Shown: positions 4,768 to 57,550, numbered from the stretch's first letter. The stretch: DNA of 64,000 nucleotides from Candidatus Binatia bacterium (GCA_963664535.1 OY761465.1:3565178-3629177); one strand, 5' to 3'. Numbers and translations: made by a program. Notes: generated by a model not told the origin, from the letters alone.

Positions 4768-6537
4768 ATGGCAAAGGCCGCTAGGGCGGAGAAGAAGCAG
4801 GCGGAGTACGGCTCGGACGTCGTCGTCGACATGCTGAAGGCGTTCGATATCGAATACACGGCTTTCAACCCGGGGGCGAGCTTCCGCGGCATCCATGACT
4901 CCATCGTGAACTACGGCGGCAACCATCACCCGGAGGTGATCTTTTGCTGCCACGAGGAGATCTCGGTGGCCATCTCCCACGGTTACGCCAAGGCCACGGG
5001 CAAGCCCATGGTGGCGATCCTGCACGACGTGGTGGGCCTCCAGCACGGCAGCATGGGGATCTTCAACGCGTGGTGCGACCGTGTCCCGGTGATCTGCCTC
5101 GGCGGTACCGGCCCGGTGGATACCACCATCCGCCGCCCCTGGATCGACTGGATCCATACCGCGCTGACGCAGGGCAACCAGGTGCGCGACTACACCAAGT
5201 GGGACGACCAGCCGGCCACGCTGGAGAGCATTCCGGAATCTTTCATCCGCGGTTACCGTCTTGCCGTCACCGAGCCCACGGCGCCGGTGTACATCAACTA
5301 CGACGCCGGCCTCCAGGAGATGGAGGTGGCGAAACAGATCGAGGTACCCGACGTCAGCCGGTTCGCCCCCCAGGCTCCGGTGCAGGGGAACCCCGAGGCC
5401 ATGCGGCGGGCGGCGGAGCTTCTGGTGGGCGCCAAGGCGCCTCTCATCGTCGCGGACTTCATGGGCCGCAAGCCCGCGGCGGTGGCGGCCCTGGCCGAGC
5501 TGGCCGAGCTGCTGGCGATTCCGGTCGTCGACAAGGGCAACCGGCACAACATCGCCAACACGCATCCGCTCGACGTGACCAACGTCGCCGGCGACTTCCT
5601 GAAGAAGGCCGACGTGGTGCTGGGGCTGGACGTCCAGGACCTCTATGGCTCGCTGACCACGGTGGACCGCACCACCCGGGAGATGGGCTACGTCATCCAG
5701 CCCGGAACCAAGATCATTCACATCAACCTGAACGACATGCTGGTGCACAGTTGGGCCACGGACGTCCAGCCGCTGCAGGCGGTGGACGTTCCCATCAGCG
5801 CCGATACGGCCATCGCTCTGCCCGAATTGACCCGCCTGTGCCGGGAGCTGATGGGTTCGGACAGGTCGGCCATCGAGGCCCGGGCCAGGGAAGTCAAGGC
5901 GGTGCACGACGCGGCCCGCGCCCGCTGGCAGGAGGAGGCGCGGCAGACCCTCACCCGCAACGACATCTCCACCGCCTGCCTCGGCTACGAGATCGGCGAG
6001 GCGGTCAAGAACGAGGACTGGGTGCTGGCCAACGGCAGCGCCAACGGCTGGGCCCGGAAGCTGTGGGACTGGACCAAGCCGGGTCAATACCTGGGCCGCA
6101 GCGGCGGCGCCGGCGTGGGCTACGGCATGAGCGCCGCCATCGGCGTGGCCCTGGGGCACATGGGGACGGACAAGTTCTGCGTCGACATCCAGTCGGACGG
6201 CGACCTGCTGATGACCTCCAGCGCCTTGTGGACCGCGGCGCACCACAAGATCCCGCTGCTGATCGTCATCCACAACAACCAGTCCTTCTACAACTCCGAG
6301 GAACACGGCATCAAGCTGGCGGAGTTCCGCAACCGCCCCGTCGAGAATGCCGGCATCGGCACCCACGTGAGCGACCCGCTGGTGGACTACGCCAAGATGG
6401 CCGAGTGCTTCGGGGTCTGGGGCGAGGGGCCGATCCGCACGCCGGCGGAGCTGGGTCCCGCGCTGGAACGGGCCTGCAAGGTGGTGAAGGAGCAGCGGCT
6501 GCCGGCCGTGCTGGACGTGGTTTCCGATCCCCGGTGA
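4768..6537 (+). CDS. thiamine-pyrophosphate-dependent enzyme (acetolactate synthase / benzoylformate decarboxylase family)
   Basis: The ORF contains the TPP-enzyme GDG...NN motif region (IQSDGDLLMTSSALWTAAHHKIPLLIVIHNNQSF) and an N-terminal Pyr domain. Start chosen at MAKAARAEKKQ, preceded by gaggggag. Confidence 0.8.
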   Translation: MAKAARAEKKQAEYGSDVVVDMLKAFDIEYTAFNPGASFRGIHDSIVNYGGNHHPEVIFCCHEEISVAISHGYAKATGKPMVAILHDVVGLQHGSMGIFNAWCDRVPVICLGGTGPVDTTIRRPWIDWIHTALTQGNQVRDYTKWDDQPATLESIPESFIRGYRLAVTEPTAPVYINYDAGLQEMEVAKQIEVPDVSRFAPQAPVQGNPEAMRRAAELLVGAKAPLIVADFMGRKPAAVAALAELAELLAIPVVDKGNRHNIANTHPLDVTNVAGDFLKKADVVLGLDVQDLYGSLTTVDRTTREMGYVIQPGTKIIHINLNDMLVHSWATDVQPLQAVDVPISADTAIALPELTRLCRELMGSDRSAIEARAREVKAVHDAARARWQEEARQTLTRNDISTACLGYEIGEAVKNEDWVLANGSANGWARKLWDWTKPGQYLGRSGGAGVGYGMSAAIGVALGHMGTDKFCVDIQSDGDLLMTSSALWTAAHHKIPLLIVIHNNQSFYNSEEHGIKLAEFRNRPVENAGIGTHVSDPLVDYAKMAECFGVWGEGPIRTPAELGPALERACKVVKEQRLPAVLDVVSDPR

Positions 6538-6603
6538 GGCAGACCGCGACGCGGACCGGCGGATCGCCCGCGGAGCAGCGCCACGGTTCGCTCTGGAGGT
6601 GAT

Positions 6604-7434
6604 ATGGACGAGAGCGCCCAGTACCTTGCCTTTGCCGAAGCAGTTTCCGAGCCCGATATGGATCTGGCCCGGGTGGCCCTGACCATCGCCGTGCCGGAGT
6701 ATCCCGAGCTCGATATCGAAGGGTACCTTGCCCGACTGGACCGGATGGCGGAGAGGGTGAGCGAGGCGGCCGGCGCCGAGGAAGGCGCCTATCGCCGGCT
6801 CGCCTGCGTTGAATACGTGTTGTTCCAGCAGGAAGGTTTCCAAGGCAACGACGAGGACTATTACGACCCCGAGAACAGCTTCCTGAACCGGGTCATGGAC
6901 CGCAAGAGCGGCATCCCCATCACCCTGTCGGTGCTCTACATGGAGGTGGCCCGGCGGGTGGGCCTGGAAGCCGGGGGCGTGGGCTTCCCGGGTCACTTCC
7001 TGGTCAAGACGGCCTGCGAAGGCCAGGAGGTCTTCGTCGACCCCTTCAACGGCGGCCGCATCCTGTCGGCGCCGGACTTTCAGGGGTTGCTGGACAGGCT
7101 CTACGGCGGCCGGCTGGAGGTCCAGCCCGAGTACCTTTCCCCCGTGTCCAACAGACAGATCGTTCAGCGAATGCTCAACAACATCAAGCTGATCTACGCC
7201 AACCGGCAGGATCTGAAGCGATGCCTCCGGGTAGTGGAGCAGCTCGTGATCCTGAACCCGCGCGACCCCGATCAGATCCGGGACCGTGGCCTTTTACGTT
7301 TGCGGCTGGAGGACGGCGCGGGCGCGCTGACGGACTTGGAGAGGTATCTGGAACTGGCGCCGGATTCCGACGGCGCCGCGACGGTGCGGGAACAGATCGA
7401 GAAGATCCGGAAACACTCGCGCGCGTTTCACTGA
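6604..7434 (+). CDS. transglutaminase-like / SirB1 (UPF0162) family protein with C-terminal TPR-like region
   Basis: 276-aa ORF with the pattern FLNRVMDRKSGIPITLSVLYMEVARRVGLEAGGVGFPGHFLVK, typical of the SirB1/YchA family. Confidence 0.6.
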   Translation: MDESAQYLAFAEAVSEPDMDLARVALTIAVPEYPELDIEGYLARLDRMAERVSEAAGAEEGAYRRLACVEYVLFQQEGFQGNDEDYYDPENSFLNRVMDRKSGIPITLSVLYMEVARRVGLEAGGVGFPGHFLVKTACEGQEVFVDPFNGGRILSAPDFQGLLDRLYGGRLEVQPEYLSPVSNRQIVQRMLNNIKLIYANRQDLKRCLRVVEQLVILNPRDPDQIRDRGLLRLRLEDGAGALTDLERYLELAPDSDGAATVREQIEKIRKHSRAFH

Positions 7435-15434: not shown

Positions 15435-16253
15435 ATGGCCGTCGCGAAAGGACCGGGGGCGCGAAAGGCTTCGCGCAAGGAACGTCTCGACCGCGTGCTG
15501 GTGGACGCGTCGCTGTGCCGAAGCCGCGAGGAGGCCCAACGGTACATCCTGGCGGGAGCCGTGCTGGTGGACGACGTGCCCGTCACCAAGGCGGGCGCGC
15601 TGGTAAGACGGGATTCCCGGGTGCGCGTCAAGGCTTCCTCGCGTTACGCCAGCCGCGGAGGAGAGAAGCTCGAGGCGGCCCTGGAGCATTACGGCGTGAA
15701 GGCGGCGGGCAGGGCGGCGCTGGACGTGGGAGCGTCCAGCGGCGGTTTCACCGATTGTCTCCTGGCCCGCGGCGCGGCGCGTGTCCACGCCGTGGACGTG
15801 GGTTACGGGCAACTGGATTGGCGGCTCCGGCAGGACCCCCGCGTGGTGGTGCTGGAGCGGACCAATATCCGCCGTCTCGAGCCCGGCGCGTTGGGGGAGA
15901 TGCCGGATCTGGCCGTCGTGGACGTCTCCTTCATCTCGCTGCGGCTGGTCCTCCCGCGGGTGTGCGGCCTGCTGTCCCGTCCGTTCGATATCGTGGCGCT
16001 CATCAAGCCGCAGTTCGAGGTGGGCAAAGGCAAGGTCGGCAAGGGGGGCGTGGTGCGTTCGGAACAGGAACACCGGCGCGTCATCGGCGAGATCGAGGAG
16101 GCGGTGGACGCGCTGGGGCTGACGCGGCGGCCGGTTTTCCGGTCGCCGCTGCTGGGGCCCAAGGGCAACAGGGAGTTCTTCATCCACTGCCGTTCGCGGG
16201 CCGTCCCGGGCCCCGATTCAAATGCCGTTGACGGGGTTGACTTGGATGACTGA
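15435..16253 (+). CDS. tlyA: TlyA-family rRNA 2'-O-methyltransferase (S4 domain + FtsJ-like MTase)
   Basis: RLDRVLVD S4-like N-terminus and LDVGASSGGFTDCLLARGA SAM-binding motif. Confidence 0.85.
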   Translation: MAVAKGPGARKASRKERLDRVLVDASLCRSREEAQRYILAGAVLVDDVPVTKAGALVRRDSRVRVKASSRYASRGGEKLEAALEHYGVKAAGRAALDVGASSGGFTDCLLARGAARVHAVDVGYGQLDWRLRQDPRVVVLERTNIRRLEPGALGEMPDLAVVDVSFISLRLVLPRVCGLLSRPFDIVALIKPQFEVGKGKVGKGGVVRSEQEHRRVIGEIEEAVDALGLTRRPVFRSPLLGPKGNREFFIHCRSRAVPGPDSNAVDGVDLDD

Positions 16254-16293
16254 TTGGCTATAGTTCGACTGACTCAAGGAGTGAACAAAGCCT

Positions 16294-16494
16294 ATGACAG
16301 GGGTTCGAATCAAGGACAACGAGTCCATCGAGAGCGCCATCCGGCGTTTCAAGAAACAGTGCGAGAAAGCCGGAATCCTGGCGGAGCTGCGCAAGCGGGA
16401 ACACTACGAAAAGCCTAGCGTCAAGCGGAAGAGGAAAGCCATCGCAGCCAAGAAGCGTGCCATGAAGCGGGCCCGAAGCCACCAGTGGTATTAG
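16294..16494 (+). CDS. rpsU: 30S ribosomal protein S21
   Basis: 66 aa, [42 protein letters not shown]..., with an aaggagtg RBS. Confidence 0.9.
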
Positions 16495-16604
16495 CTGCGA
16501 CCGTGTCCGGGTGGCCATCAAGGCGGTGACCGGCCGAGTTTGATCCGAGACGGGAACGGCGGATTCGCATCGAATCCATAGGCCCGAGAGCGTTCAACTC
16601 CCTA

Positions 16605-17180
16605 TTGGCCGTTGTGAATAGCGTCGACGCAGTGTTGGCAGCAGTCCTGTGCGTGTTCGCCGCAAGGGGGTACGTGAAGGGACTGTTTCGGGAGGTATTC
16701 ACCTTGCTGGGCCTTTCGGCCGGCTTTATCTTTTCCCTGAGTTGCTACCAACAGGTTTCCCTATGGGCGATGGATTCCTGGCCCTATTCTCCGCTCATCC
16801 TGCAAGGCATCGTCTTCGCCGTCCTGTTCCTCTTCGTTTACATCGGGTTCCATTGGGTTGGCCTGATGCTCCACATGTCCGCCAACCTCTTGCATTTTGG
16901 CGGGTTCAACCGTCTTGGGGGCTTGCTGGTGGGCGGCGCCAAGGGTGCCGCTTTGCTGGGCGTGGGGCTGTTCGTCGCCACCGCCCAGGCGTGGATTCCA
17001 CCCAATGTCCAGCGGCACCTTGACGAGGCCGCGATCGTCGAGCCTCTCCACCGCCTCGGCGCCGCGACGGCGGTGTTGGGCCGTTCCCTGAACTGGCCCG
17101 GGGTGTCCATACCGGAAGCACCGGATTTGACCGCGGACGGCCCGCAACCGACGGCTGACCGGCTGCAGGTCGGCGAATGA
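16605..17180 (+). CDS. cvpA: CvpA-family membrane protein (colicin V production protein homolog)
   Basis: N-terminus DAVLAAVLCVFAARGYVKGLFREVFTLLGLSAGF parallels E. coli CvpA. TTG start. The stop overlaps the dnaG ATG. Confidence 0.75.
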   Translation: MAVVNSVDAVLAAVLCVFAARGYVKGLFREVFTLLGLSAGFIFSLSCYQQVSLWAMDSWPYSPLILQGIVFAVLFLFVYIGFHWVGLMLHMSANLLHFGGFNRLGGLLVGGAKGAALLGVGLFVATAQAWIPPNVQRHLDEAAIVEPLHRLGAATAVLGRSLNWPGVSIPEAPDLTADGPQPTADRLQVGE

Positions 17181-18891: not shown

Positions 18892-20745
<1,854 letters not shown>

Positions 20746-20796
20746 CGGCCCGTGCGGCCTCGGCGCGCTTCCATCGACCAAACCCGACGCCTTTTC

Positions 20797-20873
20797 GGGC
20801 CCATAGCTCAGTTGGTTAGAGCCACCGGCTCATAACCGGTAGGTCCCTGGTTCGAGTCCAGGTGGGCCCACCA
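20797..20873 (+). tRNA. tRNA-Met (CAT anticodon), CCA encoded
   Basis: gggcccatagctcagttggttagagc...ggCTCATAAcc...ggttcgagtcc...tgggccca + cca. Cloverleaf with a 7-bp acceptor stem GGGCCCA/TGGGCCC and anticodon loop CT-CAT-AA. Confidence 0.85.
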
Positions 20874-20932
20874 TTTCCCCCAAGCAGGAATCCTCACCGG
20901 GACGCAGCAGGAGCGAACTGGTTCGGGAGCCG

Positions 20933-21396
20933 TTGCTCGGCTATATTGAGGAATGTGAGCGGCAGCGACGAAGTCCCAAGCCAGCCGCCCACGCCGACAA
21001 ACTCGATCCCATCCTGGACGCATGCGTTGCGGTGACGTTCCTCGTTCCGAGTTGCCCGCTCCGATTGAGGACGACCTATCGAAGGGGATTCTCGAAACCA
21101 TCGACATGGACAGCTACCGGGTGGAGAAGCAGGCGGTGAGGGACATCCGGCTTCCCGACGAGGACGCGGAGATCGAGCCCGTAATCGCCGACGGCGGTGG
21201 TCAGAAGCCGGAACCCGAGATGGACCGGCCCTCCAGTATCATCCGGGACTTCAATGACCGGTTCGGCAACGTCGAATGGAAGGACCAGGACAAGATCGAG
21301 AAGATAATCTCCGAAGAACTGCCTTTCGCTGCCACCTACGTTGAATCGGCCGCGGCCTCTGATGCCCCGGTGCAGGAGCAGCGGTCACCAGAATGA
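20933..21396 (+). pseudogene. hsdR: remnant of type I restriction enzyme R subunit (HsdR) C-terminal region (~120 aa retained, upstream part lost or frameshifted)
   Basis: ORF 21022..21396 encodes ...ILETIDMDSYRVEKQAVRDIRLPDEDAEIEPVIADGGGQKPEPEMDRPSSIIRDFNDRFGNVEWKDQDKIEKIISEELP, matching the conserved extreme C-terminus of HsdR. There is no helicase or nuclease body upstream. It lies immediately downstream of the tRNA. Confidence 0.5.
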
Positions 21397-21422
21397 CGCA
21401 GCGAACACAGGAGGCACCATAA

Positions 21423-22457
21423 ATGGCCGAGAACTTCGAAGCGGGCATCGAGAACTGCGTGGCGACCTGCGCCAGCGTCGAACGCGGCCAGAGCGTCTAC
21501 ATCGTCACCGAGGAAGGGGTCGCCGACGAGGCGGTGGTGGAGGCGCTGACCGAGTCGGCGCGGGAACGGGGGGCGGATGTCCGTGTCGTGAGCGGCCCCG
21601 TCATCCCCAGGGACCGGCCCGAGGCGATTCCGCCCGCCGTCCTGGACGCCTACGACCGGGCGGACGTGCTGTTCGCCCACTACCCCTCGCTCCAGCGGGA
21701 GGTCCTGCACCCCCATTTCCCCGGAGAGTCGCGGGTGCGTGTTCCGAACCGGGCGCGGACCGTTTCGCTCATGTCCTCGGAGTGGGCGGGCTTTCCCTAC
21801 TCCGTGCAGAGGGCGCTCGCGACGACCCTCGATACCTTGTCGGCGCCGGGAAAGTCGTGGCGCATCACCAGCCCCAACGGCACCGACGTCAAGGGAAGCT
21901 TCGGTTCGCGCGAGAGCACGGTGGCACAGGCCTATTTCGTCGAGGACGAAGGCGGCCGCGCCCGCCGCAACTTCCCCGGCGGCGTGCACAGCCCGGTGGT
22001 GGCGGTGGCCACGGAAGGAGTGATCGTGGCGGACCATATCGCGGGTTTCGGCGGAATGCCGGAATCCGTGCGGTTGGAGCTGAAGGATGGACGCGTGGTC
22101 TCGTTGCAGGGCGGCGACCCGCTGATGCACCAATCGCTTGGCGGCACCGACGGTTTCATCGACTCCTGGCACGCCGGCGTCAATCCCAAGACCATCGTGC
22201 CCATCGCCCGGGCCAAGAACCCCGGGCAGTGGTACAGCTATTCCCACTGCAGCCCGGCGATCGTGCACTTCCACGTGGGACGCTCCCACGATCCCGCGGA
22301 CGTCGCCTGTTTCGACCAGACCATCGAGATCGACGGCCGCACCGTCTACGACGGGGGAGGGCTGACCATCTGGGACGAGCCGGAGGTCGACAACGCCGTC
22401 AAAACCTCCGGGATGGTCGGCTCGATGATGGTGAATACGCCCATGACGCTGAGCTGA
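21423..22457 (+). CDS. M29 aminopeptidase-like / NicX (2,5-dihydroxypyridine dioxygenase)-like family protein
   Basis: 344-aa ORF with good codon bias and an aggcaccataa RBS-like sequence. The family call is from overall resemblance only. Confidence 0.4.
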   Translation: MAENFEAGIENCVATCASVERGQSVYIVTEEGVADEAVVEALTESARERGADVRVVSGPVIPRDRPEAIPPAVLDAYDRADVLFAHYPSLQREVLHPHFPGESRVRVPNRARTVSLMSSEWAGFPYSVQRALATTLDTLSAPGKSWRITSPNGTDVKGSFGSRESTVAQAYFVEDEGGRARRNFPGGVHSPVVAVATEGVIVADHIAGFGGMPESVRLELKDGRVVSLQGGDPLMHQSLGGTDGFIDSWHAGVNPKTIVPIARAKNPGQWYSYSHCSPAIVHFHVGRSHDPADVACFDQTIEIDGRTVYDGGGLTIWDEPEVDNAVKTSGMVGSMMVNTPMTLS

Positions 22458-26793: not shown

Positions 26794-28503
26794 TCAGAAG
26801 AGAAAATACCGCTGCGCCATGGGCACGGTCCGCGCCGGTTCGCACGTCAGCAGCTCGCCGTCGGCGCGTACCTCGTAGGTTTCGGGGTCCACCTCCATGC
26901 GCAGGGTGGCGCCGTTGTGGATCAAGTCTTCCTTGCAGAGGTCTCGTGTTCGCTTCACTGGAAGGAGTGGCCTCCGGAGTTGCAGCGCGCCGGCGAGATC
27001 GGCGTCGAGCGCCGCGGCGCTCACGAAGGTGACAGTGTTCTCGCGTCGCGAGCCGCTGAAGGCGCCGAACATCGGCCGGTAGTGCACCGGCTGTGGGGTC
27101 GGGATGGAGGCGTTGGGGTCGCCCATGGGCGCGGCGACGATGACGCCGCCCTTGAGGATGACGTCTGGCTTGACGCCGAAGAAGGCCGGCGACCACAGCA
27201 TCAGGTCGGCGAGCTTCCCCGGTTCCACCGATCCGACGTATTCCGATATGCCGTGGGTGATGGCCGGGTTGATGGTGTACTTGGCCAGGTAACGCTTTGC
27301 CCGGACATTGTCGTTGTCCGCCGTCTCCGCGGAAAGCCGGCCGCGCTGGCGCTTCATCTTGTCCGCGGTCTGCCACGTGCGGATGATGACCTCGCCCACG
27401 CGGCCCATGGCCTGGCTGTCGGACGCCATCATGCTGAACGCGCCCAGGTCGTGCAGGATGTCCTCGGCCGCCATGGTCTCCTTGCGGATGCGGCTTTCCG
27501 CGAAGGCCACGTCCTCGGCGATGGCCGGGTCCAGGTGATGGCAGCACATGAGCATGTCGAGGTGCTCGTCCACGGTGTTGACGGTGAAGGGCCGCGTCGG
27601 GTTGGTGGAGGAGGGCAGCACGTGGGAAAGGCCGCAGAGCTTGATGATGTCGGGCGCATGGCCGCCGCCGGCGCCCTCGGTGTGGAATGTGTGGATGGTG
27701 CGGCCCTTGAACGCCCGCAGGGTGTCCTCCACGAAGCCCGATTCGTTCAGCGTGTCCGTGTGGATGAGCACCTGCACGTCGTAGGCGTCGCCCACGGACA
27801 GGCATGTGTCGATGGCGGCCGGTGTGGTGCCCCAGTCCTCGTGCAGCTTCAGGCCGCAGGCTCCCGCCCGGACCTGCTCCTCCAGAGCCGCGGGCCGGCT
27901 GGCGTTGCCCTTGCCGAAGAAGCCCAGGTTCACCGGGAACGCCTCCGCCGCCTGGAGCATGCGGCCCAGGTGCCAGGGTCCCGGCGTGCAGGTGGTGGCG
28001 TTGGTGCCCGCCGCCGGTCCCGTACCGCCGCCGAGCATGGTGGTGACGCCGCTGAAGAGTGCGTCTTCCACTTGTTGGGGACAGATGAAGTGGATGTGGA
28101 CGTCGAGCCCGCCCGCGGTGACGATCTTGCCCTCGCCGGCGATGACCTCGGTGCCCGGCCCGATGATGTTGTCCACCGCCGGTTGCGTGTCCGGATTGCC
28201 GGCTTTGCCGATGGCGTGGATACGGCCGTCCCGGATGCCGATGTCCGCCTTGACGATGCCCCAGTGGTCCAGCACCAGGGCGTTGGTGATGACCGTGTCG
28301 ATCGCGCCTTCCGCCCGGGTGGCCTGGCTCTGACCCATGCCGTCGCGGATGGTCTTGCCGCCGCCGAACTTCACCTCGTCGCCGTAGACCGTCCGGTCCT
28401 CCTCCACCTCGATAAAGAGCTCGGTGTCCGCCAGCCGGACCCGGTCCCCGACCGTTGGTCCGAACATGGCCGCGTAGGCCGCACGCTCGATCTTTCTTGC
28501 CAT
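26794..28503 (-). CDS. ureC: urease alpha subunit
   Basis: [27 protein letters not shown]..., the HxH metal ligands and the flap region. The start was chosen at an internal Met of the listed ORF. Confidence 0.95.
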
Positions 28504-49432: not shown

Positions 49433-49462
49433 AACCGCGAGCAGGATGACCGCCGAGGCGAC

Positions 49463-50683
49463 TTGATTTGCCGCCCTCGATACACAAGAGCAACTGAGAC
49501 GATTGGACGAACCTTGGAGCGTGAACCCCCAAAACCCAATAGTGTACTTCGAAGCTCCCTGGAACTTCCCTGTGGCGCGATCCTGAAAAATCGACTGGCA
49601 AAGTCAGCCATGTCGGATTCGCTTGGGAACGGCGAAGGTGATCCCACCGAGGCTCAGATCCGACTCTACGAAAGATGGGCGGAAGGCGGAGTCGCCGTGT
49701 CGATCATTGGTGAGGTTCAAGGTGATCCTCGCTATCCGGAGAAGCCTGGAAATCTGGTGTTCGGAGCACACACCGATCGGCAGGCGATGAAGTCCCTGGT
49801 CAGCCGTGCCACGATCGAGGGCGCTCATGTTTGGCCGCAACTCGGTCATGCCGGTGCTCTTTCGCACCTGCCGATCAGTCGGCCGAAAGGGCCGTCGGCG
49901 CTGGATATCCAAGGTCTTCAATGTGCAGGAATGTCAGTCCAGGACGTTCAGGAACTACCTAGCATGTACGCAAGGACCGCGGCCTATGCAAAGAACGCAG
50001 GATTTGGCGGCGTTCATGTTCACGCCGGGCACGGATTTCTGCTCAGTCAATTCCTGTCGCCATTGTTCAACCGCCGGGACGACGGTTACGGCGGTTCGAT
50101 CGAGGCACGATGCCGAATAGTGCTCGAAGTGATCGACGAAGTGCGCCGTGCGGTCGGTCGGCCGTTTCCCGTCGGGATCAAGATCAACTCGACGGACAAA
50201 CTGGAAGGCGGATTGACAGAGGCTGATGCTTTGGAGGTGGTCCGCCTTCTCGATCGAACCTCGGTCGATCTAATCGACATCAGCGGCGGGACCTATTTCC
50301 CCGGAGCGAAGGCAAGCTCCGAGGGGTCGTCGAACGACGGACCCTGTTTTCTTGAGTTTGCCAGACGCGCCAAAGAGGTAACCGATGTGCCGCTAATGTT
50401 GACGGGAGGCTTTGAACGGCGTGAGCAGGGGGTGGATGCGGTGGCTGGCGGTGCTGTCGACATGGTGAGTTTGGCGCGTGCCATGGTTCTTGAGCCGCGG
50501 CTCGCGGAGGTCTGGTTGACCGAGGAAGGTGGTGATCCCGAGTTTCCGATATTCGAATCCCCGCCCCGGGAAATGGGTCGTCAGTTTGTCAGCGGTATTG
50601 CGCGTCGGACTGCTAGCACCTTGTCTTGGCTGAGACACCGTTCCCTTCACACTAAGGATAACACGGAAATTCTAAGAAGCTGA
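49463..50683 (+). CDS. Old Yellow Enzyme-family NADH:flavin oxidoreductase (start uncertain; possible upstream TTG)
   Basis: LKNRLAKSAM...HVHAGHGFLLSQFLSPLFNRRDDGYGGSIEARCR...GGF motif pattern of the OYE/2,4-dienoyl-CoA reductase FMN domain. GC content drops to about 55% from here. Confidence 0.8.
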   Translation: MICRPRYTRATETIGRTLEREPPKPNSVLRSSLELPCGAILKNRLAKSAMSDSLGNGEGDPTEAQIRLYERWAEGGVAVSIIGEVQGDPRYPEKPGNLVFGAHTDRQAMKSLVSRATIEGAHVWPQLGHAGALSHLPISRPKGPSALDIQGLQCAGMSVQDVQELPSMYARTAAYAKNAGFGGVHVHAGHGFLLSQFLSPLFNRRDDGYGGSIEARCRIVLEVIDEVRRAVGRPFPVGIKINSTDKLEGGLTEADALEVVRLLDRTSVDLIDISGGTYFPGAKASSEGSSNDGPCFLEFARRAKEVTDVPLMLTGGFERREQGVDAVAGGAVDMVSLARAMVLEPRLAEVWLTEEGGDPEFPIFESPPREMGRQFVSGIARRTASTLSWLRHRSLHTKDNTEILRS

Positions 50684-51258
50684 TAACTGCCGGCGATTTC
50701 TAGACTAAGGCCAGTGGCATCCTTCTCCGCGGCCAACGTTTCTGCCCGCTCCGTGGCTGGATCGAGATTGATTTGGCGGGTGTGAGCCTCGAGTCCCTCC
50801 AATTCAGCCCTCTGTCCGCTGAGGTCTTTGAGAGCACGCCATACCTGTTGACCCGTTCTTGGCGGAAGCGTTCGGAAATCAATCCCGAAGTCGCGAAGAA
50901 GGTGTTCGACAGACTTCTCCGGGATGTTTTCCATCAACTGGCGGTAGGAAACGTCCGAGACCCGAACGAAGTTGGTTAGGGTCAGATGACGTTGAGCCGT
51001 TGTGACTTTGCGCCCAGAATCGGCGATACAAGCGTAAAGTGAACCCCAGATCCCGCGATCGATGTATTCGTACCCGATCACCTGAATCAGGCAGAGTTGC
51101 TTCTTGATCGTTTGGCCGACAACGTAGGGAATCGCATATGAGAAATGACGTCCCGCAGAGACAACCTCTTCAAGGTAATCCAACGTATCCTCAGGGTAGA
51201 CGTCCAAGACGCAGGAAACGCGTGCATCACTGTCCGCTGGTTGAACGCTAGATGACAT
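50647..51258 (-). CDS. hypothetical protein (203 aa) translationally overlapping the PIN gene
   Basis: The start overlaps the PIN stop by 11 nt. It has a C-terminal coiled-coil-like region. No recognisable family. Confidence 0.5.
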   Translation of the reverse strand: MSSSVQPADSDARVSCVLDVYPEDTLDYLEEVVSAGRHFSYAIPYVVGQTIKKQLCLIQVIGYEYIDRGIWGSLYACIADSGRKVTTAQRHLTLTNFVRVSDVSYRQLMENIPEKSVEHLLRDFGIDFRTLPPRTGQQVWRALKDLSGQRAELEGLEAHTRQINLDPATERAETLAAEKDATGLSLEIAGSYQLLRISVLSLV

Positions 51259-51817
51259 CCTTGTGATTCCAAAGAACTGAGGCCGTTCGAGCGAGCCCCA
51301 GTCTCTCGAGCGCGGTTAGATGTTCCATGGATGACCGCGGAGGGTTCCTCAATGCGGCACGATGGCCGCGGACGGCGGCAAGAACGGCTTTGGGCTGAGA
51401 TTCAAGAAGACCGCCAATGAAGTCATCGGGATGTTGTGCTTCCAGCCCATGTGGTGCCAGCCGGTCCGCGGGAAAATCCCGCAGGTTGAGGGTCACGATT
51501 ACGCTGGCACAACCGTGGATCGCCGCCGCCAGAACATGGCGGTCGTGGACATCAGGGAGGTCGAGTTCCGCGATGAGAGTTTCGTAACCGGAAACGACCG
51601 CCTCGGGAAAGTGCTCGTCCATGATCGAACGGGTGCGCTCCAGCCTGGCGACTGTGAGATCGGGCCGGTCGGCGAGAAGGTTGGCGATCCATTCTTCATG
51701 AATCGCGATGCTCCAAAGCGGTTGGTACAAGTATTGATCCGCCAGGCGCAGAAGAAAGTCTCGAAGGCCACCGGGATACAGGACGTTGGCGTCGAGTAAC
51801 GCCGTCAATCGGTTCAT
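51248..51817 (-). CDS. PIN-domain nuclease (type II toxin, TIGR00305-like)
   Basis: MNRLTALLDANVLYPGGLRDFLLRLA...VHDRHVLAAAIHGCASVIVTLNLRDFP has the acidic PIN signature residues (D9, D/H...). Confidence 0.7.
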   Translation of the reverse strand: MNRLTALLDANVLYPGGLRDFLLRLADQYLYQPLWSIAIHEEWIANLLADRPDLTVARLERTRSIMDEHFPEAVVSGYETLIAELDLPDVHDRHVLAAAIHGCASVIVTLNLRDFPADRLAPHGLEAQHPDDFIGGLLESQPKAVLAAVRGHRAALRNPPRSSMEHLTALERLGLARTASVLWNHKDVI

Positions 51818-51820
51818 CGG

Positions 51821-52294
51821 CTATTGCAAGCCGAGTTTCTGATCCTGGGCAGTCAACTCGTCCAGCGCATCTCGGCGACGAGACTCCGTATCCCGACGAT
51901 AGGCGAGAATGTCTTCGGTCCGCACACGCCGATGTGAGCCGACCTTACGGCATGGGATTCGTCCCTCGTCGAGCAACCGTACCAGGAACGTCCTCGAAAC
52001 CTGCAGGAGATCGGCCGCTTGCCGTGTGGTCAACTCGGCCTGAACCGGTGTCAACGCAACTGTATTGCCACGCGCCATCTGATCCAGAATCTCGCGCAGA
52101 AGCCGTAGCGCTTGGACGGGAATCTCGACCGTTTCCTCGCCGGCCGCGCCAAATCGAACCGGAACCGGCTCAGTCCCATCCGGCAACTCTGCCAGTTTCC
52201 TGCCGATATGGTCGGCAAGAAATGCGTCCCGGCCGCTCGCAAACCCAGTCTCTCCGTCCTTCATGGCTCGATTTCCCATTGGCACCGCCTCCAT
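51821..52294 (-). CDS. excisionase-family HTH (HTH_17/MerR-like) DNA-binding protein, putative antitoxin
   Basis: LTTRQAADLLQVSRTFLVRLLDEGRIPCRKVGSHRRVRTEDILAY is the excisionase-family HTH. Its stop lies 3 nt before the PIN start. Confidence 0.65.
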   Translation of the reverse strand: MEAVPMGNRAMKDGETGFASGRDAFLADHIGRKLAELPDGTEPVPVRFGAAGEETVEIPVQALRLLREILDQMARGNTVALTPVQAELTTRQAADLLQVSRTFLVRLLDEGRIPCRKVGSHRRVRTEDILAYRRDTESRRRDALDELTAQDQKLGLQ

Positions 52295-53030
52295 TTCGAC
52301 AACGGCAATACTTACTCAACTAACATAAATACCATATTCGCTGCAAACGACACGTTTCAGGCTCCCATAGGTCTAGGAGTCTGCGCCGTAGAAAAATGTC
52401 GTGGGACAAAGCCCCACATTCGCACCAAAATCGCACCCATCATGGGACACGCAACCAAATTGCCGCCACTTTGGACGGAAACTTGGTCGTGCGATCCCGC
52501 CGTCCACGTCCAGAAGCGTTCTGCAGCGCAGACTCCTAGGTCACTTGAACTGTTCCCCTTGAATGGTGTGTCCTTCTTAACCTTCTTTCCGTGCCATTAA
52601 ACACAGAGAGGAGGGAGTCGTGGTCCGGCTGGGACACAGCCGAAAGGCAGTCCCAAACGAGACGCGGCTGACGAGGTAGCAGTCTATCGCTGGCGGATTG
52701 GATCAAGGATGTGGCGCTGGAGCATCCGGCCTAGGCAACCGACCGGAAACGATAGCAATGTTTGAGGGCCGGCGTGTGTCGTGGATGGCGATCCGAAGAT
52801 TCTCAACGACAGCGGCCCGGGCCCACGCCCGGGTCGCGGCCGACGCTGGAGAAGTGGACCGCGGACATGCACTGGAGTTGACTGCGGAGAGAGGCGGTGT
52901 TTCCCGAGAAGTTCAATCCGTGAAGTAGCGCGCGCGAGCACCCCAACAGTCGGTGAGTCGCAGCCGAGCAAAACTTGTCCGTTGCACGCGAACAGTACTG
53001 AGCGATCCTACCACCGACAGTGGTGCCGTG

Positions 53031-56000
53031 TTAACTCCGAAGCCTCTTGGCGATCTTCGCTCTCGAATCTTGCCAGTTGGCATCGTGGTCGTAGGTAACG
53101 GCAATATCCTCGAGGATTCCACCGACGTAAGGATAGTCGAAGTGGAGCTGCTCGGCCCAAGCACGATATCTTGCGGCGAGCTCCCGCTCCTGCTGGCCCC
53201 CTTCGCCCCGCCAGTGAACGCCGCGAGAGTTGCAAGCACCGATGACGAGTCCTCTGCCGATCTCCGAGGACGCTACCTCCTCCATTGCCTCGCAGACTGC
53301 TTTGCACGGCCATAAGCCGTCTTCGTCCTTGGGCGCCTTGGCAAGGAGTTGACCGAGCCAAAGATCGCCAGCCTCGACGCGGCCGTACTCGCGACAAAGG
53401 CGCCGCACCCCATCAAGCCACTTTGATAGTGCCACCGCGTCAATTTTACCGTTCTCGTCTTTGCCGGGAATCACTTCCAATCGATCGAGAAGGCGATAGG
53501 CTGCCCTTCTGACTGAAGCTCGCTGTTCTGGGTCTTCGACCAGCCATTCCGGCGGGTCTTCTTCTTCGTCACTTCGCTCGTATGTGAGGGCAATCGCCTG
53601 GACGAACGATATCGGTGACTGCGCAATCATGCGTTCGAGATTCGGAATCCCGTGCTTGCTGTGATCGAGGACATCGATGTAGAGGAATTCCAATTCAGCC
53701 ATTTCACCACGGGTGATACCCGCACGACCATCAAGCACCTCGAATGCTTCGGAAATAAAGTGCCCGTCGATCTTGAAATGGCCTGCTGGTTCGGCGTTGC
53801 CCGTGGCGACGTCACGCAGCAGCCGCTTGAGGCGGGACGTCTCGACATGCTCAATATTCATGTGGACGGCGCGGAAAGCTGCGCGTGGCCGGGCAGCGTC
53901 CAGAAGGCCATCCATGAGTTCGGAGAGTTCGGCGGGCGTGTGTCGGTGGCAGACAGGGTACACTTGCTTCCAGTATCCAACGCGGATGTCCTCTCCTTCA
54001 CCGTCGAGCAGACGCCACGTCGAGTCTCGGAACGGCGCATTTACAAACAGGCGCGTACGTTCGTCGGGGGGCATTACTCTGGCTGCGGCCTGTAGCACCT
54101 TGGTGCGAGAGTCGTCTTCAATGGCCCAAAGGGCACCCTGTAGACACGACTCGGCTTCATCTCGAAGGTCTTCATCAAGAGAAAGGCAGCGCCGGATGAA
54201 CTCAACTCGTTCATCAACGTTGGGAACGCACGATATCGCATATTGGCCAACCGTGTGGGCGGCACCGGTGGCAGTCAGCAGTTCCTTGACACCTTCGAAA
54301 CCATACTCTGCCCAGATGTCGTTCATCGCTTCCCGGCGCAGCCTGTCGATACGGTCGTCGCGTTTTTGCCAGTCGAAGTCCTCGTCATCGAATTCGTCAG
54401 CGGATTCCTGTACCCACTGATTGGCGAACAGCCAACGATGCCGGGCAACCGGATCTTGGGGTTGGAGTTTTTCGTAGGTCTCCCGCGCGCGGTCGCGGGC
54501 TGTTTCTCCGATCTTCAGGTGGCGGGCACGCCGGGTGAGGGCAAACCGTCTGATGCGTTCGCGTAACGCGGCCTTGGCAGATTCGCTGGCGTTAATGGAC
54601 CATCCGTCGATCAAATCCCAGACCTTGGTCTGTTCGTCCTCGGGAATGCCTTCGAGTGATTCGACGAGGTCGCCAAGAGTCGTTTCATCGTGGGACGGCC
54701 ACGCGACTATGAGGTCTAGCGCCTCTCGAGTGAAGTGATGAAGTTCCTTGTAAGTGACTACCTGCCCGGCCCCGGAGGCGTCACTACGCCAACGGGGCCT
54801 GTAGCTGTCGTGCCCGAACCGTGGACCGCGCTTGATTTGCTCGATACAGATCTCCCAACCGACATTGGGAAAATTCCTGACGAGCGCTTTCAACGCTTTG
54901 ATCCTCTGTTCCAATGTCGCTGCTGTCTGTGGCATCCAAGATCTGAAAATGGCCTGCAGGCTGGCGTCCGGTTTGTTAACCCAGTTGTCGTCGATTTCTT
55001 GCCTGGAAAGGCGAGCGAGGATTTTGGTTACCCGCGAGAGGTTGCTGGGGTTCCATGCAAGGCACTCCATGGCCCAGAGCAGACCAGTCCGTGAAGGAGA
55101 CAAGAATATCGAGCCGCTGTCGACCGGCTTGAGAAGGCCGAAGACCACGGGTTCGTCTTGGCGTAGGTCACCTTCGATGATCTTTAGGAATTCGTCGGGT
55201 GCGGCCTCTGCAAAGTACGGCAGGTTTTGGTCGTGCGAGAGCAGCTTCTCAAGTGCCAAAGGCGTCAAGAGTTTAAGGATCAGACCAGAAACTCTGGCTT
55301 CAGCATCGAGCCCGATACGGTCCCGGAGCAGGTTGTTTCCATGTACTGACAGGATCACGAGTGTCTCGCAGATTCCCTTACGTAGAGCGTCGGAGTGCTC
55401 ATGGGTCTTGTCATAAAACACTGCAGCCCACCTGTCGTCTTCCGGCAGGTCAAGGGCAGGATCAGTCTCGGAAAGCACAATTGCGGCGGCGGAGAAGAAC
55501 CGATCGAGGTCTGCTGGTGTGATCATCCTGGCAATAGCGAACAAAGCATCGATTTTTGAGACGACCCCCCGGTGGCTACCGGCGGACCACGCTGGGCTGT
55601 CATCGAGCTGAAGCAAGGGCATGACGTTACCTTCGACCGCCTCGTATTTCCGATCCGCCACATAGGCCAATATCTTGCGGTCCGCTTCCCGCTTAGTGTT
55701 CCAGGCTCCGATCAGGGCCATAGGTACGAGGGCTTTCGCGGTATCGTCATCGCCTGCCCAGACCGGCGTTCTGATCGCGGCGTTCTTTGAGAGGCGGCGA
55801 CGAAGGATTGTCGGCGAGCAACCGGATTCCCTTGCCAGCCGATCCATTTGGTCCCGTGCAACTCCGGCGGCATTTAGGGCCTTCCTAAAGGCCTCATGAC
55901 CGAGAAGATCAAGTGTGATATCCGCATTAACATTCACGTCATTGCGAGGTCGGAAAACGATGCCGTGAAGTCGGCGATAGGCGTCGGCAAGCTCGCGCTC

Positions 56001-57098
56001 GACATCCTCGGAGACAACGATCGGAATGAACGGTACTGACGACGAAATCAGAGTTCGAAGAGTCGGAGGAGATGTGAAAATCGCGGTAAGGTCTTTGGAT
56101 TGATGGAACTCTTGCACATCAAACAGGCAAGCAAGGAAGGCGAGTGCTTCGTCCCGTGAGTCAGCCGAGACGACAAATGGCTTGTTGCTCGGGTTGGTGA
56201 GCCACTTCTTGAAAGTGCCTTGGTACGCTGCGATCGAAGGTGCGAAGATTTCGGGTGTCAGATGTGGCTCGCTGGCATTCGCCCATCGATTCCATGCTTG
56301 CTCAAGAGTCTCGTACCCGTTGACCGGCAATCCAACTTGCTCGGCAAACCAGATCTGCGCTGGCACGGACTGCTCCAGCCACTGCTCGATGTCGCTCGCA
56401 TCGAATACTCTGACTGCCTTCCAGTCTCCAGCCTCATTTTTCAGTTTTTCCCAAGTCGTCTTGCCTGCCCAGTTGCGGGGGGTGACAAAAACGAAGGTGC
56501 TCTTGGCACGTTCGGGGCGGCCAACCGAGATCAGGCGGGAGGAATAGTCGTTCTCTGCTTTGACACGGGACTCTTTGTTGGTGCCGAACTCCCAATGGGA
56601 CAGCCCTTCGGGAACCCAGGGGGTGGCGGCGGACGCTTCGACAAAACCATCGTCGCCTTTGCGTTGGGCGTTGTCGTAACCGGGGAAGTCGACCCTGAGA
56701 AGTCCGTTGCCCGTTGATTGCACCAACTTTCGCAGCAACACGGGTAGGTGAGTGCGCGCATCAATTTGGCCGGCCCAATCCTCGATCTGTCTTGCGGTGA
56801 TGGTCAGGAAACTGGGCACGAAGGCGCGTACCGCGACGGCCCTTTCCCCAACCTGTCGCTCTTGCAGGTCGTGCGCTGACTGCATGTCCAGCAGTCTCTG
56901 ACGGTCGGCGCCAAACGCCTTCTCCAATCTGACCGCCATCTCCGGGGACAGGGCAGATCTCCCGTTTAGGAAGTTCGACAGCGCTGGGCGGCCTATGCCG
57001 AGTCGGTTGGCCGCGTCTTTGACTGTCATGCCAGACGGAATGACGTTTTGCCGGACAAAGGTGCCTGGATGCTGGTGTAAATCCGGATGAGCTTTCAT
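53031..57098 (-). CDS. 1355-aa protein: N-terminal HigA/XRE-type HTH domain fused to a ~1250-aa region of unknown function
   Basis: N-terminal MTVKDAANRLGIGRPALSNFLNGRSALSPEMAVRLEKAFG is a HigA-family antidote HTH. The rest has no recognisable P-loop, nuclease or protease motif. It is a single long ORF in a lower-GC island. Confidence 0.7.
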   Translation of the reverse strand: MKAHPDLHQHPGTFVRQNVIPSGMTVKDAANRLGIGRPALSNFLNGRSALSPEMAVRLEKAFGADRQRLLDMQSAHDLQERQVGERAVAVRAFVPSFLTITARQIEDWAGQIDARTHLPVLLRKLVQSTGNGLLRVDFPGYDNAQRKGDDGFVEASAATPWVPEGLSHWEFGTNKESRVKAENDYSSRLISVGRPERAKSTFVFVTPRNWAGKTTWEKLKNEAGDWKAVRVFDASDIEQWLEQSVPAQIWFAEQVGLPVNGYETLEQAWNRWANASEPHLTPEIFAPSIAAYQGTFKKWLTNPSNKPFVVSADSRDEALAFLACLFDVQEFHQSKDLTAIFTSPPTLRTLISSSVPFIPIVVSEDVERELADAYRRLHGIVFRPRNDVNVNADITLDLLGHEAFRKALNAAGVARDQMDRLARESGCSPTILRRRLSKNAAIRTPVWAGDDDTAKALVPMALIGAWNTKREADRKILAYVADRKYEAVEGNVMPLLQLDDSPAWSAGSHRGVVSKIDALFAIARMITPADLDRFFSAAAIVLSETDPALDLPEDDRWAAVFYDKTHEHSDALRKGICETLVILSVHGNNLLRDRIGLDAEARVSGLILKLLTPLALEKLLSHDQNLPYFAEAAPDEFLKIIEGDLRQDEPVVFGLLKPVDSGSIFLSPSRTGLLWAMECLAWNPSNLSRVTKILARLSRQEIDDNWVNKPDASLQAIFRSWMPQTAATLEQRIKALKALVRNFPNVGWEICIEQIKRGPRFGHDSYRPRWRSDASGAGQVVTYKELHHFTREALDLIVAWPSHDETTLGDLVESLEGIPEDEQTKVWDLIDGWSINASESAKAALRERIRRFALTRRARHLKIGETARDRARETYEKLQPQDPVARHRWLFANQWVQESADEFDDEDFDWQKRDDRIDRLRREAMNDIWAEYGFEGVKELLTATGAAHTVGQYAISCVPNVDERVEFIRRCLSLDEDLRDEAESCLQGALWAIEDDSRTKVLQAAARVMPPDERTRLFVNAPFRDSTWRLLDGEGEDIRVGYWKQVYPVCHRHTPAELSELMDGLLDAARPRAAFRAVHMNIEHVETSRLKRLLRDVATGNAEPAGHFKIDGHFISEAFEVLDGRAGITRGEMAELEFLYIDVLDHSKHGIPNLERMIAQSPISFVQAIALTYERSDEEEDPPEWLVEDPEQRASVRRAAYRLLDRLEVIPGKDENGKIDAVALSKWLDGVRRLCREYGRVEAGDLWLGQLLAKAPKDEDGLWPCKAVCEAMEEVASSEIGRGLVIGACNSRGVHWRGEGGQQERELAARYRAWAEQLHFDYPYVGGILEDIAVTYDHDANWQDSRAKIAKRLRS

Positions 57099-57550
57099 TG
57101 TGTTGCCTCCCCTAAACTGGCCGATTCCTAATAAGCTACATTAGCGTGTAGCGCGATACGCAACACAATGCAGTCGCTTGTCTCGAATTTCTGGAAACTG
57201 ACGCAGCCACGCCACCGAGAAGGCCTACGTGCTTCAGCGGCGCTGTTCCCTTTGGTGGCTAGCCAGTGGTGCCGGAGCAACAGATTCGTCGACGCGGTTG
57301 ATCTCGTATGCTAGGTAGACTTGGATGCGCATGTCCGAAAAGCGGAGCCACTACCGGGGCCAAAATTGAGTTTCCAGAACGTCGTTGTTGGGAGTCCGGG
57401 GGGTACCTAGACAGAGGACGGAGCGACAGAGCCGCGTTGCAGCGCGCACAGACCAGAGTGAATCTGCTTACGATATGCTTACGACAAGGACCACGGCGCT
57501 CAGCGATCCACAGTTCATGATCCAATAAATGACAAGTATATCAAATAGTT

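Follow-up and report, generated by a model that had tools for sequence, protein, structure and literature searches.

The question raised by this locus is what an 8-kb stretch of low guanine + cytosine (GC) content is doing in a Binatia chromosome, where it separates a major facilitator superfamily (MFS) gene from hyuA. The block occupies positions 49440-57545 of a stretch of 64,000 nucleotides from Candidatus Binatia bacterium (GCA_963664535.1 OY761465.1:3565178-3629177), which is called the window below; loci from other genomes are referred to by number (L147 and so on). The original prediction, made from the sequence alone, described the block as a defence island carrying a PIN/helix-turn-helix (HTH) toxin-antitoxin (TA) pair and a giant HigA-HTH fusion protein. 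We approached the question through composition, absence from relatives, module borders, predicted folds, invariant residues, purifying selection and mobility. At the centre of our answer stands the giant protein of 1355 aa, which we read, with moderate confidence and on the strength of its modelled structure, as a single-protein abortive-infection sensor of the Avs-like kind (Avs, antiviral STAND proteins; STAND, signal transduction ATPases having numerous domains), resembling nucleotide-binding leucine-rich repeat (NLR) receptors.

Sequence searches against Pfam, NCBIfam and PDB recognise only the HTH of the giant protein, of which residues 9-80 reach 59.7 bits with TIGR02607 (cutoff 47.7) and match the PDB HigA structure 2icp at E 1.7e-6. 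PHROG 18693, a family of unknown function, matches residues 100-1352 (E 1e-143), and a PDB sequence relative of the 1250-aa core was sought in vain with both the single sequence and a profile. AlphaFold2 (AF2) models were read alongside these searches; built on 57-sequence alignments, they are confident, with predicted local distance difference test (pLDDT) scores of 93.4 (residues 95-700) and 91.0 (residues 660-1355). The domains are laid out as follows.

56814-57098, - strand: residues 1-95, HigA-type XRE HTH (TIGR02607, PDB 2icp)
56364-56801, - strand: residues ~100-245, PD-(D/E)XK restriction-endonuclease-like domain with D150, E170, K180 and D184
55509-56213, - strand: residues ~296-530, STAND/AAA+-like nucleotide-binding oligomerisation domain (NOD), composed of an alpha/beta nucleotide-binding domain (NBD), a helical domain and a winged helix, without Walker A
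53034-55508, - strand: residues ~531-1355, all-alpha solenoid, putative sensor (AF2 model)

In a Foldseek comparison with the PDB, Avs3 ranked first (E 8.9e-8, probability 1.0), followed by SAMD9, Avs4 (7.4e-5), and Apaf-1 and NLRC4; MspJI, AspBHI and Can2 are also named among the structural comparisons of the model. Judged by predicted fold, the giant protein consists of a nuclease, a STAND-like NOD with a small NBD of ~90 residues, and a helical sensor, and comes closest to Avs3/Avs4. Residue conservation was assessed over 143 diverse homologues: in the nuclease, D150, E170, K180 and D184 are invariant in 142-143 of the 143, which argues for a catalytic enzyme. The position of the P-loop is occupied by a conserved A-D-S-x-x-E-A-L-A-F; in the giant protein the strand 'FVVSA' is followed by D-S-R-D-E-A-L-A-F, and S314 and E317 are conserved in at least 138 homologues. 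Compared with its nearest relatives, each domain has a ratio of nonsynonymous to synonymous substitutions (dN/dS) of ~0.2, the maximum (~0.3) falling in the final 350 residues, which indicates that the gene is intact and under selection. Its open reading frame (ORF) runs uninterrupted across 4,065 nt and is provided with a Shine-Dalgarno sequence.

Of the features that mark Avs proteins, the modelled giant protein has an N-terminal nuclease fused to a sensor, a STAND-fold NOD and a long C-terminal helical domain, and it lacks Walker A (GxxxxGK[ST]) and Walker B. Like Avs3 and Avs4 (PDB 8dgc, 8dgf), it places an N-terminal PD-(D/E)XK-type nuclease effector, a NOD and then a sensor on one polypeptide. 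In contrast to these proteins it has no P-loop, carries an extra N-terminal HigA-type HTH and has a sensor without a match among the known Avs sensors, and sequence similarity to them is not detectable (the PDB profile search finds the HTH only).

The only defence model with reproducible sequence similarity to the giant protein is Avs8, the new name of PD-lambda-4, in which Avs8A combines an Mrr nuclease, a STAND NTPase and a sensor, has Avs8B as its partner and senses major capsid proteins (bioRxiv 10.1101/2025.07.02.662641; PMC13581612). The PADLOC profile PD-Lambda-4_A gives a local, collinear match between residues 626-740 and profile positions 560-663 of 1283 (E 7e-6), and of 35 diverse members of the family, 24 match the profile in this way (best E 6e-8). 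The order nuclease, NOD, sensor is common to both proteins, and the absence of Walker A in the giant protein recalls KpAvs8, an Avs8 homologue with degenerate Walker motifs. However, the similarity covers ~8% of the giant protein, without a full-length match to PD-Lambda-4_A, and falls short of a PADLOC call. Walker A is missing throughout the giant-protein family and not in single members, and an HTH has been added. An Avs8B-like partner is also lacking: no gene lies downstream in the window (52354-53030), and a 667-aa gene that follows the giant gene in two relatives (see below) does not match the PD-Lambda-4_B models. Taken together, the giant protein is probably a distant Avs8-like relative.

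Upx is a further point of comparison. It is a single protein with an N-terminal sensor, for which published models predict target binding through beta-augmentation, and with a PD-(D/E)xK nuclease at the C-terminus, without STAND, and it senses terminase (PMC13601566). The giant protein is likewise a single large protein in which a PD-(D/E)XK nuclease accompanies a large unannotated sensor without a working STAND NTPase; it differs in having the nuclease at its N-terminus, a NOD-like fold and an all-helical sensor. PADLOC scans of the giant protein gave no meaningful matches to Upx, Gabija, CBASS or other PADLOC systems.

The giant protein belongs to a very large family. Clustered at 90% identity it comprises more than 2,800 clusters; at 50% identity there are 6,881 clusters with E<=1e-3, and 2,886 among them attain E<=1e-30. 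Nearly all members are ~1,350 aa long, with a minority of ~1,260 aa that have no HTH; an HTH was found at 72 of the 86 homologous loci that formed our neighbour survey. Among the members with ~70% aa identity are sequences from Syntrophobacteraceae, Paenibacillus, Paraburkholderia and Alphaproteobacteria. Eighteen full-length copies are located on plasmids, including the conjugative Shewanella baltica plasmid pS19502. A phage origin was rejected, as tblastn against 50,697 phage records returned one partial match of 24% identity, despite the PHROG match. Metagenome contigs with family members are often only 4.2-6.5 kb long, barely exceeding the gene, which fits a cassette with strain-variable flanks that break assemblies on both sides.

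The giant gene is mobile. The segment 53008-57339 shares 91% nucleotide identity with L147, and this homology stops abruptly on both sides of the ORF, 241 nt upstream and 23 nt downstream. Both L147 and L148 have the gene at another locus, between an HU gene on one side and a small HTH gene and an Eco57I-like restriction-modification (RM) gene on the other; in L147 a RES toxin and an integrase are present as well, and L148 derives from the same Binatia metagenome-assembled genome (MAG) as L022. The sharp edges of homology and the different locus identify a 4.33-kb single-gene cassette that was relocated within the lineage. In other genomes, copies more than 90% identical to the giant protein have an Eco57I-like RM gene, a RES toxin and an integrase for neighbours, and the neighbours of giant-gene copies in general include Eco57I-like RM, RES and PDC-S37/Hhe-like genes. 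The nearest relatives outside the >90% cluster, L066 and L009, have 82-83% aa identity; in the more distant L009 (86% at the nucleotide level) homology is limited to the ORF.

Across the 86 loci, no partner gene of the giant gene is conserved, and since most loci have none, the giant gene appears normally to work alone. The only neighbour recurring in more than four of them is a divergent DUF4172-Fic gene, located 140-200 bp upstream in six (L076, L085, L087, L091, L092 and L133). Directly 3' of the giant gene, L066 (11632-13635, after a 10-nt spacer) and L009 (~4850-6856) carry the conserved 667-aa gene, which Pfam does not assign to a family and for which PADLOC gives only a weak CARF_PDDEXK hint. 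Remnants of this gene, or of the DACNV-DAC gene that follows the giant gene in L001, were not found in the window by tblastn.

Ahead of the giant gene, ~190-210 nt from its start, stands a 26-nt element, CATACGAGATCAACCGCGTCGACGAA, at 57285-57310 (- strand); it includes the palindrome CGTCGACG. It is kept in L147 and is 96% identical at L066 7229-7254, where the upstream region is otherwise not alignable. The element could be an operator for the HTH domain. In addition, a 16-nt inverted repeat (57184-57199/57369-57384, 88% complementary, arms 169 nt apart) has the core TTCCAGAA/TTCTGGAA, and its outer arm falls just beyond the cassette border at 57339.

If the giant protein is an Avs-like sensor, its helical domain would bind a conserved protein of the phage or some other cue of infection. 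This would release autoinhibition and drive oligomerisation through the NOD, probably without ATP hydrolysis, and the gathered PD-(D/E)XK nuclease domains would then cut DNA and abort the infection. The HTH may repress the promoter of the cassette, hold the giant protein on DNA, or both.

The HTH is also the starting point for a different account, in which the giant protein is an addiction gene, that is a toxin-antitoxin system in cis: the HigA-type domain would repress the promoter and neutralise the fused nuclease, and the gene would stabilise a plasmid or island without sensing phage. Residues 9-80 are a bona fide HigA-family XRE HTH, and the N-terminus passes the HigA model. The nuclease residues are of catalytic type and invariant, and the gene travels as a single-gene cassette on conjugative and other plasmids and on mobile islands. 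However, a classical HigA of ~100 aa stands beside a HigB RelE-like toxin, whereas the HTH makes up 7% of the giant protein. A HigB gene upstream was considered and rejected, as there is no plausible ORF in 57099-57550 and no recurrent small upstream gene in the 86 loci; any toxin would therefore have to be in cis. What the original prediction called a HigA-HTH fusion covers only this small share of the protein; with no HigB in the window and none conserved at the 86 loci, the giant gene is not a HigBA system, and databases mislead in naming it 'HigA family addiction module antitoxin'. An addiction gene would have no need of ~1,000 residues of NOD and solenoid kept under purifying selection (dN/dS ~0.2). 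Some members (~1260 aa) do without the HTH, the PHROG profile begins at residue 100, and the architecture is collinear with Avs8A, Avs3 and Avs4. We therefore consider an addiction gene an unlikely explanation, and one that does not exclude a phage-sensing role, as the two are compatible.

Whether the giant gene is part of a larger island depends on the block in which it is found, the features of which are the following.

49433-49462: left junction, where ~20 nt of the ancestral MFS-hyuA spacer are kept (GGATGAC...), in comparison with the empty sites L019 and L023
49463-50683, + strand: Old Yellow Enzyme (OYE) gene, Oxidored_FMN (Pfam)
50647-51258, - strand: third ORF of the TA module, with an 11-nt overlap with the PIN gene
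51248-51817, - strand: PIN_3 gene (Pfam)
51821-52294, - strand: HTH_17 gene (Pfam)
50690-52353, - strand: three-gene TA block, its 3' end truncated at the OYE block (DNA comparison)
52295-53030: stretch of 736 bp without a credible ORF
52354-53007: 654 unassigned bp separating the TA block from the giant-gene cassette
53008-57339, - strand: single-gene mobile cassette of 4.33 kb (nucleotide alignment to L147)
53031-57098, - strand: giant ORF, 1355 aa, with the HigA model at its N-terminus
57410-57550: native hyuA upstream region, with 77-79% nucleotide identity to L014, L017 and L024, and from 57461 also to L018

The block has a GC content of 57.5%, whereas the remainder of the window has 66.8%, and it is the minimum among all 8.1-kb windows of the 64 kb (mean 65.4%, sd 2.3%). 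The step is sharp at either end, from ~68% to 57.5%; a drop had been claimed before, and its size, given as 70% to 55%, was slightly overstated. Codon usage agrees with this: GC at third codon positions (GC3) is 0.59 for OYE, 0.57 for the third gene and 0.64 for each of PIN, HTH_17 and the giant ORF, that is 0.57-0.64 inside, compared with 0.87-0.92 in the flanks (MFS 0.92, hyuA 0.87, hyuB 0.91). All genes listed in the original prediction (OYE, HTH_17, PIN, the overlapping third gene and the 1355-aa ORF) were recovered, as was the gene-free stretch. Comparison with relatives places the final 125-140 bp ahead of hyuA outside the foreign block, as native DNA. A known plasmid as the source of the whole block was rejected, megablast giving no match.

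The MFS|hyuA junction is a lineage-specific variable spot in Binatia chromosomes. A HyuA scan retrieved orthologues of 82-88% aa identity in chromosomes of Binatia/'Thermodesulfobacteriota' MAGs, and MFS and hyuA remain neighbours in 13 related Binatia genomes, none of which has the TA module or the giant gene at this site. The junction is empty in L019 (59 bp) and L023 (61 bp), and in nine other relatives it is 0.8-8.1 kb long with differing cargo. L017 carries HTH_3, HigB-like toxin and DUF4238 genes and an IS3 integrase fragment (58% GC), and L029 and L015 carry metabolic or regulatory genes of native GC. As the block deviates in GC and GC3 and its site is empty or otherwise filled in the 13 relatives, being neither syntenic nor conserved, its description as compositionally foreign DNA stands. 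The cargo of L014 (57% GC) comprises QueC-like, PfkB/nucleoside-deoxyribosyltransferase, Ogg-HhH glycosylase-like and HTH genes. The low-GC stretch concerned, L014 6285-9617, holds a QueC-like gene, PfkB and nucleoside 2-deoxyribosyltransferase, a small gene, an Ogg-HhH glycosylase-like gene and an XRE HTH gene; in appearance, this cluster is a candidate cassette of the 7-deazaguanine type, for DNA modification or defence.

Judged from the DNA comparisons, the block is not one island but composite, with at least three segments that were acquired separately: OYE is older, the TA module is truncated at its 3' end, and the 4.33-kb cassette is separate. OYE would be the first segment, and one that arrived earlier. 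It is a metabolic flavin reductase (Pfam Oxidored_FMN, E 9e-44, residues 41-348) and no defence gene, and its true start is probably ~25-30 codons downstream of the TTG at 49463. At the same site, L027 has an OYE copy full of deletions, 85.6% identical at the nucleotide level. This divergence is about that of the flanking genes, which indicates that OYE has been resident for longer and that one lineage is losing it by erosion. A VapBC50-type HTH_17/PIN module with its third gene, cut at the OYE junction, would be the second segment, and the single-gene cassette, moving between loci and between phyla, the third.

The presence of a PIN/HTH TA module was borne out by Pfam matches and by gene order. 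The stretch 50690-52353 is 93.5% identical to L010 and 94.7% to L012/L013, at unrelated loci, and the order HTH_17, PIN, third gene is kept in L010-L013. L012 and L026 come from one MAG, where the module lies away from the MFS|hyuA site, beside an nSTAND NTPase gene. The HTH_17 protein (Pfam E 6e-13, with the excisionase-type TIGR01764 excise domain) is a putative VapB50-like antitoxin. Its stop codon is separated from the PIN start by a 3-nt spacer, and the pair is translationally coupled. PIN_3 is matched at E 2e-6, and both Pfam models exceed their cutoffs; NCBIfam NF046100 (RSP_2648 PIN) scores 146.2 bits, just under the cutoff of 170. Candidate acidic residues of the PIN protein, read off the translation without a PIN-profile alignment, are D9, E41/E42, D91 and D114.

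Similar to VapBC50, an HTH_17 gene lies directly upstream of a PIN_3 gene, and the near-identical PIN homologues in L011/L013 carry PIN_3 and VapC50_C. The difference is the overlapping third gene, which is conserved with the pair in L010-L013 and truncated in the window. It has five homologues only (117-281 aa), all adjoining the same HTH_17/PIN pair, and no match in Pfam, NCBIfam, PHROG or PADLOC. The alignment of the third gene breaks after ...DATGLSLEIAG, at about residue 190, and the final ~13 residues are read-through of the junction; as homology stops 6 nt from the OYE stop codon, the gene was truncated there.

Between the TA block and the cassette, the 654 bp at 52354-53007 yielded nothing with Pfam on seven stop-to-stop frames, no RNA family over threshold with Rfam at E<=1, and no similarity by blastn to any of 146 loci or to other parts of the window. 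On the - strand, three terminator-like hairpins lie at 52400-52478, where 1.1 would be expected in the region scanned, and another lies at 52976-52994. A 21-nt inverted repeat is found at 52373-52393/52519-52539.

Elsewhere in the window, shorter GC dips (~61-62%) occur at 16001-17000 and 20001-21500, the latter adjoining the only tRNA of the window (tRNA-Met, 20797-20873). An Rfam match to 5_ureB_sRNA at 28062-28351 (+ strand; 117.8 bits, gathering score 40) most likely reflects conserved ureB coding sequence, placing urease genes around 28 kb.

The site itself suggests another explanation, namely that an ordinary intergenic region, variable or in decay, has gathered miscellaneous genes by horizontal transfer and plays no functional part in defence in this genome, with a giant gene orphaned of its downstream partner and a damaged TA module. 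The truncated third gene, the 654 bp of apparently dead DNA and the OYE pseudogene of L027, by which the site is seen to gain and erode cargo, are in line with this, as are the native-GC metabolic or regulatory genes of L029 and L015 and the absence from the window of the 667-aa gene of the closest relatives. Nevertheless, the giant ORF is intact, with its Shine-Dalgarno sequence and a dN/dS of ~0.2, PIN and HTH_17 are intact and 93-95% identical to copies elsewhere, and a conserved partner is missing from most of the 86 loci in any case. We give decay little credence.

The remaining account, a STAND-class transcription regulator in the manner of MalT/LAL/AfsR, with the HTH as output, repeats that bind a ligand and a nuclease-like domain that is inactive or only binds DNA, has the weakest claim and is in our view very unlikely: HTH, NOD-like domain and helical repeats are the domain set of STAND regulators such as MalT and LAL (large ATP-binding regulators of the LuxR family), NCBI labels distant plasmid homologues 'helix-turn-helix transcriptional regulator', and high conservation with constant length is more typical of regulators than of phage sensors, but known STAND regulators retain their Walker motifs and have the HTH at the C-terminus, D150, E170, K180 and D184 are invariant across the 143 homologues, the HTH is optional in the family, no target operon is conserved next to the gene in the 86 loci, and the cassette travels alone among RM, TA and integrase genes.

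The reading of the giant protein as an Avs-like sensor has to be weighed against a number of observations. Across the 143 homologues, Walker A is absent and no GK[ST] is conserved within residues 290-420, and with a NOD devoid of the nucleotide-binding motifs by which STAND NTPases are defined, oligomerisation by the canonical route is uncertain. For the C-terminal ~825 helical residues, only generic repeats were matched and no specific fold. Similarity to PD-Lambda-4_A is limited to ~110 residues, and PADLOC (2023) called zero systems in the block. For a phage sensor the family shows unusual conservation: its length is constant, and a Paenibacillus copy shares ~70% aa identity with the window copy. 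The 667-aa gene is missing from the window and from most other loci, and the window copy could be an incomplete system that lacks it. In the literature, we found no experiment linking the family to phage defence. Finally, the window shows neither an integrase nor an att site to account for the acquisitions: no integrase, tRNA or flanking direct repeats were found at the borders, confirming the earlier report for integrase and repeats; Pfam, PADLOC, NCBIfam and PHROG scans of the block genes gave no match to an integrase family, and the nearest tRNA is at 20797.

What remains of the defence-island proposal is foreign, mobile DNA at a variable spot, with a TA module and a defence-like giant gene; the notion of one island does not hold, and OYE is an old, metabolic acquisition. 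For the giant gene as a defence gene, the Avs3/Avs4-like fold and the RM, RES and integrase neighbours speak in favour, and the PADLOC result does not. We tentatively consider a broader possibility, that the family constitutes widespread, cross-phylum NLR-like receptors without nucleotide binding, in which the P-loop has been replaced by ADSxxEA, a HigA-type head has been added, and the nuclease would be assembled on DNA upon an infection signal.

For the Binatia, the locus documents a hot spot in an uncultured phylum at which a 4.3-kb cassette and a TA module have been exchanged without a recombinase visible in the window. If the Avs-like reading is true, thousands of genes now named 'HigA family addiction module antitoxin' or 'HTH transcriptional regulator' would be single-gene immune sensors of the Avs/NLR type, spanning Binatia, Syntrophobacteraceae, Paenibacillus, Paraburkholderia, Rhizobium, Shewanella plasmids and elsewhere, and a large family would be added to the catalogues of defence systems. 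As the ATP-binding loop is thought to drive STAND oligomerisation, these proteins would also provide a natural test case for NLR-like activation without nucleotide exchange.

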